From: Ascidiella aspersa
Taxonomy: Eukaryota
Length of the DNA stretch: 64,000 bases
Direction: 5' to 3'
Assembly (NCBI GenBank): GCA_963924565.1
Contig: OZ004609.1
Location: forward strand, 29,140,001-29,204,000
The position numbers and the translations under genes were made by a program. Under the pieces are notes generated by a model. It was not told where the DNA came from and made no database searches. It worked only from the letters and a program-made list of their open reading frames with translations. This document shows, piece by piece, positions 35,331 through 38,459 of this stretch (its first letter is position 1; each line of letters starts with the position of its first letter).

Positions 35331-38300
35331 CTACAGCAACACAGCGGTTCGCACCTCTTCCCAAACCAGCTCGTCGCTTTCCCCTGGACCCGGATACAGC
35401 ACGACGCTGTGCGGATTCTTCCTGGCCTTGTACTTGACGAAGGAACTGGCGCCGACGCCTCTATCGAGGCTGACAATGACGCAGCGATCGCCTAGGCCAG
35501 AAAACGACCAGTCTTCCAGAACCGCTATCACGTGCTTGCACTTGTTGGACTTAACGAAGTTCTTGGACAAAACTACGATCGTTTTTCGGCTCGACTGCAT
35601 CCGCAAAAGCAGCTGCTTAATCGGTGTCGTACCACAGTAGTCGTTTTGACCGATTACTCCAATTTGCAACGACGGAGTGCCGTTTTGCAGCTTTTGAACG
35701 AGCTGGTCGACTACCCAGGTCTCAACCGACTTGTTGGTTACGTCGTAAACGACAAATCCGTGATACGAGTACGTTGTTGCATTTACATCGTCGGCATTCG
35801 ATTCATTTTCGTGCCATTTTCGTATTTTTCTGTGCACTATCTTTGTAAGAAGTGTTTTAAACCGCTTGCTGGTGCCTGTCAAGCCGGCAATAAGCAAAGC
35901 TAAATTGACAGAACAAAATAACGACAAGTCAAGCAATGCCATGTTCATTTGACAAAAGTAATTCAAACTGTAGCTAAAAACGGTTTCGAGTTTATTTTCT
36001 GTTGTGTAGCACACAAGGCAGCCGTCGAAATAGTTGTGCATCTGGATCGGACAGTGAGGCAAAAAACCAACGACAGAAGTGTGGTCGATCATGGTTGAAC
36101 GCACCAGCCAACCAAAGTTATCACTCATGGAGCAGTGACAAGTCATTGTGTTGCCGCGAACGTCCAGAAACGACAGCTGGGTCAATAGCCGCTTTGTATA
36201 TACGAGGGGCGACAAGTCAGTCAGCTCGCTGAACGAAAGATCAAGTTCGCGCAGCTTGGGTAAATTGAAAGAGCCGGGGGCTATCGAGTGTACAATGTTG
36301 TGCTTAATCGAAAGCGATTTCAGATTGCGACAGCACCACACAATAGAAGTGTTGATGGTTTCGATTAGGTTCGAGTCGACAACCAAGTGCGTTAAATTCT
36401 GCAACTCTCGGAGCGCTGCGTATGGGAATAATTCCAGCTCGTTATGACTTACATCCAGTTCAGCGACTGATGGCGTGCCTTTTAAAAAATTGCAGGTCAG
36501 TCCTTTTTTTAAACGGGCGTATTGGATCGTCAGCTTGGTTACTGCCGGAAACATGGCGTAGCTGAAATCGTTTTGAATCACGTCGAAGTAGGGAAACGTG
36601 ATGCCGGAAAGATCAAGCACGTCCACGCTTTCGAAAGAAACATTGTGCAGCAAATACATTCCTAACAGGTAGTAGAGGCCATTGCGGGTCCCACCAATTG
36701 TCAAATTGACTTGTTTCCTAACTGCAGTTAAAAAATCCAATCTAAAGTTGGGGTCAAAGAAGGACCCGAATAATGAAATTCTTACTCTTGATAAACCGCT
36801 GAACGCCAGCGGGGATATGATTCGAATCGGATTATAACTCAAGTCAACCATCTGTAGATTAATCAGCGGCGAAAATGCATTATTTTCAATGTAGCTGATC
36901 GTGTTGTAGCTCAGGTCAAGGGAGCTAAAAGCAGGGTTATTTCCAAAAGAACCGCTATTCACAATCGATATAAAGTTGCTTCTCAAACTTAATGTCCTAT
37001 AGTAGTACCCTGAGCTTATATTTAGCTTTCGTATAGTTTCGTTTCGCTTTTCGCCATGATGTATCAACGAAATGTCATTGGCGTTCAGGTCCAGTATGTT
37101 TAGATTGGTTAATTCGTCCACTGCACTCATGTCAAACTTCGAAAAGCCACACCTTCCCAGATAAAGATGTTTGAAATGGCGCAGTGCGCCAAGAACAGCG
37201 AAACTATGAGCATTGACGTTATTGTAGCGTAAGCCATAAATACCGTAGTTTTCCGAATGATTCACTCCATACGACAATCCGAGTACCAACGTGATAAGTG
37301 CCGGAAAATTGCTGTATGCCGCTCCTAGGGTAAGGTTGACTTGTTCAGGTGGCGTCGGGTATAAGTTTTGGCATCGATTACTTGTGGCAAGGTCGAGCAG
37401 TGCTAAATACTTCAGGGGCGGTATGAAGGTCGGATTGGACGTCTGAAACTTAAAGCAATTAAAATCGAGGTGAAGCGCCCGAAGCTTTGTGTTGTTAAGA
37501 AGAAAGCCCTTTGGTACTGCGGTGAGCATGTTACCGGCTAAATTGAGTTCTGTCAAATCTCGCAAACCACCCAAGGCACCCTCGTGAATAACCATCGGTG
37601 TAAAGTCGTGCCTGGTCGTCCAGGATAAATCCAAATAGGTGAGTTTCTTGGCTAGGTTGAAGTCGTCTCTGCCCAACACGTGTATGGGATTTCCACCGAG
37701 TAAAATGAACTCCATGCTTTCAGCGATCAGAGATTGCGGGACCGAGCGCGGCCAACTGTTGTAGCTGCCGTCGAAGTAACGGAGTTTGTTCTTTTCAAAC
37801 GGTTTGCCGTGGACGGTGAAATTCCGCGGGCACTGGGAGACCGGAGTGCTCTGAATGCAGTTCGCCTTCATGAGCACAATGTCGAGACTGGTAAGAGCTG
37901 AAAGCTGCCGCTCACCAATCGGTCCGACCAAGGTGTTGTCGAGTAGCAGCACTCGTAGCGAGGCTGGCAAGTTATCGGGCAGCTTCGACATTGCGTTGTT
38001 GCCTAGGTCAAGGAACTTTAGTCGCGATGTGTGCGAAAATGCGAGCGGATGAAATCGCAGGAAGCCGCTGCACGCGACCACTTGCTTTTTAGTCTCGCAG
38101 TTGAAGCCAAGATCGAGGGCTGCCAGAGATGGGTATTGCGCTAGGTCGTCGGCGCCCACGTACCGAATTAGATTGTTGTTCAGCAGAAGTATTTCAACGC
38201 TGGAATCGAGAACATTCGGTATCGTCTGGATGCCTCGTTTATAACAGCTGATGGCCGGAATTGACTTGTTTGTCCAGGCCGGGTAGCGCAGCCTTTCGAA

Positions 38301-38459
38301 CGCCAACTTTGCCACATTGTTTGAAAAATTGTGAATCGTACTATTGACGATGTTTCTACATTGATATTTAATGAATCGCATTGCCTTCTGATCGCCGCCT
38401 CTCACAAAAGGCGGTACACCACAGCAGAGTGCAAACATAGCAAATAAAATAGGTTTCAT
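35331..38459 (-). CDS. Toll-like receptor, 1042 aa, single coding exon (signal peptide, LRR ectodomain, LRRCT, TM, TIR); TLR7/8/9-like features
   Basis: Long ORF with hydrophobic N-terminus, many LxxLxLxxN repeats, LRRCT (NTMTCHC...C...C), TM (ALLDLSLFCSVNLALLIAGLTG) and TIR (YSYHGFVVYD..VETWV..LVQKL; SRKTIVVLSKNF; final W in ELVWEEVRTAV). Confidence 0.96.
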   Translation of the reverse strand: MKPILFAMFALCCGVPPFVRGGDQKAMRFIKYQCRNIVNSTIHNFSNNVAKLAFERLRYPAWTNKSIPAISCYKRGIQTIPNVLDSSVEILLLNNNLIRYVGADDLAQYPSLAALDLGFNCETKKQVVACSGFLRFHPLAFSHTSRLKFLDLGNNAMSKLPDNLPASLRVLLLDNTLVGPIGERQLSALTSLDIVLMKANCIQSTPVSQCPRNFTVHGKPFEKNKLRYFDGSYNSWPRSVPQSLIAESMEFILLGGNPIHVLGRDDFNLAKKLTYLDLSWTTRHDFTPMVIHEGALGGLRDLTELNLAGNMLTAVPKGFLLNNTKLRALHLDFNCFKFQTSNPTFIPPLKYLALLDLATSNRCQNLYPTPPEQVNLTLGAAYSNFPALITLVLGLSYGVNHSENYGIYGLRYNNVNAHSFAVLGALRHFKHLYLGRCGFSKFDMSAVDELTNLNILDLNANDISLIHHGEKRNETIRKLNISSGYYYRTLSLRSNFISIVNSGSFGNNPAFSSLDLSYNTISYIENNAFSPLINLQMVDLSYNPIRIISPLAFSGLSRVRISLFGSFFDPNFRLDFLTAVRKQVNLTIGGTRNGLYYLLGMYLLHNVSFESVDVLDLSGITFPYFDVIQNDFSYAMFPAVTKLTIQYARLKKGLTCNFLKGTPSVAELDVSHNELELFPYAALRELQNLTHLVVDSNLIETINTSIVWCCRNLKSLSIKHNIVHSIAPGSFNLPKLRELDLSFSELTDLSPLVYTKRLLTQLSFLDVRGNTMTCHCSMSDNFGWLVRSTMIDHTSVVGFLPHCPIQMHNYFDGCLVCYTTENKLETVFSYSLNYFCQMNMALLDLSLFCSVNLALLIAGLTGTSKRFKTLLTKIVHRKIRKWHENESNADDVNATTYSYHGFVVYDVTNKSVETWVVDQLVQKLQNGTPSLQIGVIGQNDYCGTTPIKQLLLRMQSSRKTIVVLSKNFVKSNKCKHVIAVLEDWSFSGLGDRCVIVSLDRGVGASSFVKYKARKNPHSVVLYPGPGESDELVWEEVRTAVLL

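Follow-up and report, generated by a model that had tools for sequence, protein, structure and literature searches.

Does an ascidian genome encode a Toll-like receptor (TLR) that shares ancestry with the nucleic acid-sensing TLR7, TLR8 and TLR9 (TLR7/8/9) of vertebrates? The question is raised by a 64,000-nucleotide stretch of the Ascidiella aspersa genome (contig OZ004609.1, positions 29,140,001 to 29,204,000; the window), whose minus strand carries a single long, intronless open reading frame (ORF) of 1042 amino acids (aa) at positions 35331-38459 (P0001). The gene is an intact single-exon TLR. Pfam recognized leucine-rich repeats (LRRs; LRR_8, E 7e-42) and a TIR domain (21.3 bits, exactly the cut-off) in the protein, which follows the single-cysteine-cluster plan of an LRR ectodomain, one C-terminal cysteine cluster (LRRCT), a transmembrane (TM) segment and a TIR domain. 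Contigs from another sample of the same species (X2) span the ORF; they differ from it by substitutions, and no indel is listed within it. A first-pass annotation, made from the letters alone, had proposed the 1042-aa TLR, its single-cluster type, its tunicate origin and its possible status as a pre-vertebrate representative of TLR7/8/9. The first three claims were borne out: every quoted motif was found in the translation, there is one C-terminal cluster, with an extra cysteine pair (C803/C814) within it, and the tunicate origin is corroborated by relatives in Clavelina and by an exon of the genome matching glycoside hydrolase family 6 (GH6), which among animals is associated with tunicates in the accessible text of two sources (PMC7464555, PMC6523144).

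The fourth claim is the subject of this work. We propose that the gene is likely a diverged, expanded tunicate co-orthologue (sister group) of vertebrate TLR7/8/9. The reading as a whole, which we consider probable, is that of an intact TLR, one of ten, likely sister to TLR7/8/9 and likely a dimerising endosomal sensor of microbial nucleic acid fragments.

The gene belongs to a family of ~55 sequence clusters (our own assignment) among the best 150 of a representative search with HMMER; word-indexed searches gave mostly chaoptin- or slit-type LRR proteins and no family members. Eighteen family clusters that were looked up comprised 6 Clavelina proteins and 12 unnamed ENA records, with no Ciona or Styela member among them, and all named members are from Clavelina. 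Four of the six Clavelina members carry automatic TLR7 or TLR8 names; the C. lepadiformis proteins XP_076813901.1, XP_076821479.1, XP_076803988.1 and XP_076823641.1 (auto-named toll-like receptor 7/8) and XP_076819643.1 are in the same family as the query, to which the best Clavelina match (P0117) is 34-35% identical over its full length. As far as we found, the TLR7 likeness of these proteins is already present, unanalysed, in their RefSeq labels: no study was found behind the names, and toll or TLR is mentioned nowhere in the Clavelina genome paper (PMC10950049).

Collinearity of the ectodomain with vertebrate TLR7/8/9

Human TLR7 was the top PDB match of the query (E 7e-31). When ectodomains were scored with a profile of 54 tunicate sequences only, TLR7 (409 bits), TLR8 (356 bits) and TLR9 (343 bits) each aligned as one stretch and ranked above TLR3 (247 bits) and TLR13 (237 bits), with TLR5 also well below; with a 7-row tunicate profile, TLR4 chimeras came last (77 bits). 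A hidden Markov model (HMM) of the tunicate ectodomain, built from 35 full-length family rows, matched 13/13 full-length vertebrate TLR7/8/9 rows as one collinear domain (293-384 bits, 93-95% coverage), five of these rows (P0198, P0247, P0252 and two halves of P0160) being unnamed and assigned by tree. A shortened shark TLR7/8/9 isoform gave 171 bits at 49% coverage. Among 37 other TLR or LRR proteins, 15 amphioxus TLRs included, the best domain reached ≤82 bits and ≤49% coverage and 0/37 were collinear; no collinear match was obtained for TLR3, TLR5 or TLR13 (for TLR4 the comparison was confined to structure and PDB profile). HMM scores summed over domains were discarded as a yardstick, since they come out too high for repeat-rich proteins.

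A structure model from tunicate rows only (pLDDT 88.7, 26 LRR strands) was compared with 48,161 fold representatives, as the first-pass annotation had suggested in outline. The best matches were TLR9 (Z 36.0; root-mean-square deviation, rmsd, 3.1/686) and TLR7 (Z 35.8, rmsd 2.9/703). Small leucine-rich proteoglycans came next (Z 25-27), and TLR13 (Z 24.9, rmsd 4.9/675), TLR5 (Z 23.8), TLR3 (Z 23.3, rmsd 7.1/622), TLR4 (Z 21.5) and TLR2 (Z 18.5) ranked lower. The register and curvature of TLR3, TLR4, TLR5 and TLR13 do not match those of the model (Z 21-25, rmsd 4.9-10.6, vs. Z 34-36, rmsd ~3 for TLR7 and TLR9). The fold matches of a first structure model were set aside as partly circular, since its alignment held one fish TLR8 row. 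The AlphaFold2 model may itself lean on solved TLR7/8/9 structures.

The vertebrate TLR7 family (TLR7, TLR8, TLR9 and lamprey TLR7/8-like; PDB 7cyn, 7ytp, 3w3g, 3wpe) is the closest known system. The query shares with it the length, 26 LRRs in register, a 26-residue LRR10, the single C-terminal cluster and the overall fold, at 21-23% identity. Residues and repeat lengths were compared between 35 family rows and 12 vertebrate TLR7/8/9 rows. For 19 of 25 intervals the median repeat lengths were equal or differed by at most 2 residues, and the repeats follow the TLR7-family pattern described in the accessible text of PMC1899181 (where 27 LRRs are counted for our 26): long, cysteine-closed LRR2 and LRR5, a 21-residue LRR3 of the short S type, as in the N-terminal STT super-repeat, and a long LRR14, the site of the Z-loop. 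LRR3 has 21 aa in both groups and contains LPxxLPxS in the query, the strict S-type motif being present in 13/35 family rows, 11/12 vertebrate rows and 4/36 others. The LRR2 cysteine loop (C121-C130) was found in 35/35 family and 7-8/12 vertebrate rows, and the LRR5 loop (C201-C210) in 33-34/35 and 12/12, respectively; a loose NC..C loop motif occurred in 3/36 other TLRs. These two of the cysteine insertions quoted earlier as TLR7/8/9-like are indeed held in common with that family; the third, the cysteine of LDLATSNRC (C363, LRR11), is a tunicate feature, with no cysteine among the vertebrate residues of its column.

The likeness varies along the ectodomain. In a segment test TLR7/8/9 rows outscored the best other protein in 13/14 cases for LRRNT-LRR5. 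Several results weigh against the proposed kinship: elsewhere these rows won only 4/14 (LRR6-10), 5/14 (LRR11-14), 0/14 (LRR15-21) and 6/14 (LRR22-CT), amphioxus TLRs scored above them for LRR15-21, and a vertebrate HMM broke the query into two domains (best 146 bits) with a summed score of 237, below several amphioxus sums (249-279). The middle LRRs, which fit TLR7/8/9 no better than they fit amphioxus TLRs, and the small leucine-rich proteoglycans next in the fold ranking would suit a different origin: a TLR family that is specific to an invertebrate lineage, or related to TLR3, and came to resemble TLR7 by convergence or as a mosaic (e.g., through independent acquisition of a decorin- or FLRT-type N-terminal half). 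We regard this explanation as unlikely, since it needs convergence of 26 in-register repeats, two cysteine loops, a long LRR14 and a TIR insertion that is missing in the TLR3 row.

TIR domain and phylogenetic position

A 3-residue insertion after TIR box 1, a criterion defined from the alignment in this analysis, was found in 15/15 TLR7/8/9 rows (near-duplicates included) and 40/41 family rows vs. 1/26 other TIRs. The family row lacking it has a deletion there, the single other TIR that carries it is a cuttlefish Toll-like protein, and one other-TIR row is truncated at the site; human TLR1 and TLR2 and the 7 amphioxus TLRs in the TIR alignment are without it. As a point on the opposite side, TIR profile scores tied (TLR2 65.0 vs. 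TLR7 63.8).

The tunicate family grouped with TLR7/8/9 in trees of the full-length protein (30 rows, C20; support 100/99), of the ectodomain (31 rows, LG+G4, 90/99; 24 rows, C20, quick search, Shimodaira-Hasegawa-like approximate likelihood ratio test [SH-aLRT] 97) and of the C-terminal part, from the last five LRRs to the TIR domain with the register anchored (29 rows, 96/91). On the C-terminal part, approximately unbiased (AU) tests, with p values uncorrected for multiple tests, rejected the joining of the tunicate family with TLR13/21/22 (0.014), amphioxus TLRs (0.035) or TLR5 (0.048), and of TLR7/8/9 with amphioxus TLRs (0.028).

The TIR domain alone gave a different picture. Removal of near-duplicates and partial rows left 58 of 82 rows for a TIR-only tree, in which the family was monophyletic (100/100), with a very long stem branch (2.15), and joined medaka TLR3 and a long-branch row (83/90); in a 38-row TIR tree it joined TLR3 with 61/77. 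A tunicate and TLR3 grouping was also not rejected on the C-terminal part (AU p 0.09). Moreover, the trees left out TLR4, TLR11/12, TLR15, Ciona TLR1/2 and most amphioxus clades, TLR2, TLR3 and TLR5 were represented by one row each, and support in the ectodomain tree may come from better alignability alone. All of this counts against the sister relationship, and the TLR3 joins are what convergence or a mosaic origin would gain from. However, the join in the 38-row tree was flagged as two long branches meeting, and the C-terminal part groups with TLR7/8/9 by itself. Forcing the tunicate family and TLR7/8/9 together on the TIR tree cost 0.44 in log-likelihood (AU p 0.485), and the grouping was not rejected. 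The phylogeny that the annotation had called for is thus favorable to its proposal in the full-length, ectodomain and C-terminal trees, and in the TIR-only tree it returns a weak long-branch join with TLR3.

Vertebrate TLR7/8/9, lamprey included, formed a clade of their own in the ectodomain, full-length (100/99) and C-terminal trees; the tunicate family is therefore their sister, and not TLR7, TLR8 or TLR9 proper. An intronless ORF whose top named non-tunicate matches are vertebrate could also be a contaminating or horizontally transferred vertebrate TLR7/8/9 gene. This explanation is hardly credible and largely refuted by the low identity to vertebrate rows, by ten copies on five large contigs, by the Clavelina relatives and by the position of the family outside the vertebrate clade.

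These data suggest that (i) with the sister grouping present in most but not all trees, the TLR7/8/9 type of receptor likely arose before vertebrates; and (ii) the ancestor of tunicates and vertebrates had, with good confidence, one proto-TLR7/8/9 gene, which gave rise to three genes in vertebrates and, separately, to an expanded set in ascidians.

Residues particular to the tunicate family and proposed function

Several defining features of TLR7/8/9 fail in the tunicate proteins, and full membership in the family is therefore not upheld. The four-cysteine loop of LRR8 was present in 0/35 family rows vs. 12/12 vertebrate rows. The TLR7 residues F408 and D555, which touch small-molecule ligands at site 1 (accessible text of PMC7562955), correspond to G438 and R546 in the query; F was found at the first position in 4/35 family vs. 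12/12 vertebrate rows, and D at the second is outside the five commonest family residues vs. 10/12 vertebrate rows. According to the accessible text of PMC8181103, a Z-loop of ~40 residues lies between LRR14 and LRR15 in TLR7/8/9, and a disulfide links its end to LRR16 (e.g., TLR8 C479-C509). The query has 10 extra residues at this site, the 35 family rows +6 to +52 (median 29) and the 12 vertebrate rows +30 to +60. The query has neither cysteine of the disulfide; many family members, Clavelina proteins among them, differ from it in a longer Z-loop with the terminal cysteine (20/35 rows), and the LRR16 cysteine, present in 12/12 vertebrate rows, has an adjacent counterpart in 4/35 family rows. 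The mid-ectodomain Z-loop quoted in the annotation hence lies exactly where expected, but is short and without cysteine. A proline in the BB loop has a role in MyD88-dependent TLRs; it is absent here, with cysteine in 32/35 family rows vs. proline in 9/12 vertebrate rows. Each of these absences speaks against the kinship. Profile, fold, the indel in the TIR domain and three tree partitions out of four uphold the notion of a pre-vertebrate TLR7/8/9 representative; the LRR8 loop, F408/D555, the Z-loop disulfide and the BB-loop proline do not.

The family also has features unlike those of vertebrate TLR7/8/9, namely C335 in LRR10 (29/35 rows) and C363 in LRR11 (30/35 rows), the extra LRRCT cysteine pair, an insertion of 14 residues in LRR12 (median 41 vs. 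27 aa), a longer N-terminal cap, the BB-loop cysteine and its ten copies. A second cysteine, in TIR helix C, is common across the family; a redox-sensitive or disulfide-linked TIR domain is possible.

We put the chance that the family senses nucleic acids at about even. The protein is a type I receptor whose ectodomain ring has the shape of those of TLR7 and TLR9. The N-terminal LRRNT-LRR5 region of TLR7 contacts nucleic acid. That of TLR9 does so too (accessible text of PMC8181103). In the tunicate proteins this region is the best preserved, unlike the nucleoside pocket, and we therefore propose that oligonucleotides are sensed through the N-terminal repeats: by analogy with TLR9, and with the balance of probability tilting neither way, an oligonucleotide would bind the LRRNT-LRR5 surface and connect it with C-terminal LRRs of a partner protomer. 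In TLR9 the contact involves LRRNT-LRR10 plus LRR20-22 of the partner (accessible text of PMC8181103). Ligand-induced dimerisation would, as in the receptor family at large, bring two TIR domains together. The vertebrate nucleoside, R848 and guanosine pocket is probably not used, since G and R take the places of F408 and D555, respectively. The short Z-loop may make cleavage less necessary. MyD88 would be the default adaptor by family, an uncertain assignment with the BB-loop proline replaced by cysteine.

A further point against an endosomal sensor of this type is that no clear UNC93B1 orthologue was identified among the UNC-93 family genes present in the genome, the best exon, which we take to be UNC93A-like, giving 39 bits to UNC93B1. 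One UNC-93-family ORF (L029:1327-2784, contig C3; 485 aa, intronless, presumably MFSD11-like) is near-identical to one exon of a C1 gene that has introns (L030-L033, L035) and is a probable recent, intact retrocopy.

Tentatively, and at somewhat less than an even chance, we suggest that the TLR7/8/9 nucleic acid-sensing lineage arose in the tunicate-vertebrate ancestor and that non-Ciona ascidians keep and have expanded it as nucleic acid sensors whose design would be ancestral or reduced, with a variable Z-loop, a cysteine in the BB loop and neither an LRR8 loop nor a nucleoside pocket. It is also possible, although rather doubtful, that these are true TLR7/8/9 co-orthologues with a changed job, either a diversifying family for non-nucleic microbial ligands or one that uses another adaptor. 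The lost site-1 residues and LRR8 loop, the long LRR12 insertion, the BB-loop cysteine, the very long TIR stem and LRR14 and LRR15 as the least conserved repeats among five own paralogues (29-30% vs. 41-60% elsewhere) would fit such a change, but the nucleic acid-contact region LRRNT-LRR5 is the best-preserved TLR7-type part, and the ectodomains of the own copies have a neutral to basic character, with net charges from +4 to +40.

Copies, neighborhood and the tunicate TLR repertoire

The first-pass annotation had treated the gene singly; it is one of a multi-copy family. In the genome assembly (G000, 308.6 Mb, 75 contigs) a TIR search gave 10 loci, and an N-terminal search the same 10, which is a lower bound. 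They lie on five large contigs: three on C2, one (the window copy) on C3, one on C4, four on C6 and one on C9. Nine of the ten are intact single-exon ORFs of 1042-1066 aa, and those paralogues that were compared share 40-56% identity with the query. The disrupted copy (L016, C2) carries an insertion of a ~200-base repeat just before the TM segment (L016:3268-3468, ~14.097 Mb). The insert has inverted-repeat character and leaves an 879-aa ectodomain-only ORF; apart from it L016 is 99.9% identical to L017, and its repeat family also occurs at window positions 15298-15448. For the truncated copy, both a pseudogene and a soluble decoy are conceivable. The 1066-aa proteins of L012 and L013 (C6, ~58 kb apart) are identical, and 14 kb from each locus lies a 90%-like neighbor; the pair may stem from a recent segmental duplication or from duplication in the assembly. 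Among the own paralogues, divergence is greatest in L019:940-4113 (C4; 40-43% identity), whose strongly basic ectodomain (net +40) makes it a candidate polyanion binder.

Two weaker matches on C7 were rejected as paralogues, being LRR-TM proteins without a TIR domain. They are tandem single-ORF genes (L026:1543-3459 and L027:1711-3564), FLRT-like by reading, and have a short S-type LRR, as does the TLR family. Four near-identical multi-exon genes on C5 (L020-L023, 6.57-7.56 Mb) encode, by reading, a canonical TIR domain without the 3-residue insertion.

In a sample of ~6% of one RNA run (X4), reads covered positions 35138-36541 only, at a depth of 0.5-2.1 (~five read pairs, both first-mate strands); the 5'-most 60% of the ORF and the unique flanks had none. 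These reads, on the 3' part and just downstream, weakly support low expression of the gene. Its features are collected in Table 1.

Table 1. Coordinates in the window of the TLR gene and of the features of its protein
Feature	Positions	Strand	Basis
TLR gene, one exon, 1042 aa (P0001)	35331..38459	-	ORF and Pfam
Probable signal peptide, ~residues 1-21	38397..38459	-	inferred from hydrophobic N-terminus
N-terminal cap C34...C72; its helical insert exceeds that of most vertebrate rows in length	38202..38360	-	
26 LRRs, ring ectodomain, TLR7/8/9 register	36141..38201	-	model strand count, repeat lengths, fold match
LRR2 cysteine loop C121-C130, aligns with TLR7 LRR2 loop	38070..38099	-	
LRR5 cysteine loop C201-C210	37830..37859	-	
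LRR8, 29 aa, without the vertebrate four-cysteine loop	37551..37637	-	
Tunicate-specific C335 (LRR10) and C363 (LRR11), probable disulfide (bond inferred)	37371..37457	-	
Short Z-loop without cysteine, LRR14/LRR15 junction, ~residues 468-486	37002..37058	-	spacing 34 vs. 24 typical; low pLDDT
Lone C-terminal cysteine cluster (LRRCT), six cysteines	35952..36152	-	
Transmembrane helix, ~residues 840-862	35874..35942	-	hydropathy peak and model helix
TIR domain	35334..35771	-	
TIR box 1-helix A segment with 3-residue insertion common to TLR7/8/9	35715..35747	-	
BB-loop C942 where proline is usual	35634..35636	-	

A very high-copy repeat (X2 contig depth >18,000) occupies window positions 39818-40500, beginning ~1.4 kb upstream of the start codon. 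Exons of neighboring genes in the window match a mitochondrial carrier (8011-8376, minus strand), a protein kinase (13918-16271, plus), an amino-acid transporter (23570-29935, minus), an adhesion/secretin-type G protein-coupled receptor (41014-43683, plus) and a C2H2 zinc-finger gene, presumably Snail/Scratch-like (55725-57831, plus). To our knowledge, none of these is a known neighbor of TLR7/8/9. At a larger scale, among genes that neighbor TLR7/8/9 in vertebrates, a PRPS gene lies 2.7 Mb from the C3 copy and a GLYCTK-like gene 2.0 Mb from the C2 cluster; PIGA is on C3, 25 Mb off, and HCCS and Sedlin are far away. Two of seven tested loci thus lie ≤3 Mb from a family locus (estimated chance ~0.14), at best a hint of synteny with the vertebrate neighborhood.

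Published Ciona TLRs were compared by description, not by sequence. In the accessible text of PMC12816324, Ciona CiTLR1, CiTLR2, CiTLRs1 and a TIR-less 'CiTLR7' have the ascidian TLR architecture in common with the query, CiTLR1 being single-exon; CiTLR1 and CiTLRs1 are placed with invertebrate TLRs, CiTLR2 near TLR2 and CiTLR7 near TLR5, with only three true Ciona TLRs and none near TLR7. Four Ciona and Styela TLRs grouped with invertebrates in the available part of PMC13012124, which also claims amphioxus TLRs as close TLR7/8/9 homologues; a pre-vertebrate root of TLR7/8/9 has therefore been suggested before. The amphioxus TLRs compared here (15 without a collinear ectodomain, 7 without the TIR insertion) may not include the clade of that report. 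No TLR7-family member is reported for B. lanceolatum in the accessible text of PMC6224433, and no tunicate member is named in that of PMC6946030, PMC8455134, PMC8609888 or 10.64898/2026.03.26.714386. We found no published description of a tunicate TLR7-family clade in the literature searched, subscription papers being mostly outside it.

In their accessible parts, surveys of Ciona, Styela and Oikopleura describe a tunicate repertoire that is poor in TLRs, numbering 1-3, none of which is assigned to the TLR7 family (PMC12816324, PMC13012124, PMC8609888). A multi-copy sister family would overturn this view of a reduced repertoire for at least some ascidians and would date the TLR7/8/9 architecture to as early as the common ancestor of vertebrates and tunicates. 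If the ancestral or reduced-design reading is true, the guanosine/uridine pocket of vertebrates and their long gating Z-loop, disulfide included, would have been added or fixed later. Used as an outgroup, the tunicate family allows tests of whether RNA or DNA was sensed by the ancestor and of when the nucleoside pocket, Z-loop gating and UNC93B1 dependence arose, while its natural range of Z-loop lengths (+6 to +52) offers a ready series for tests of cleavage-dependent activation.

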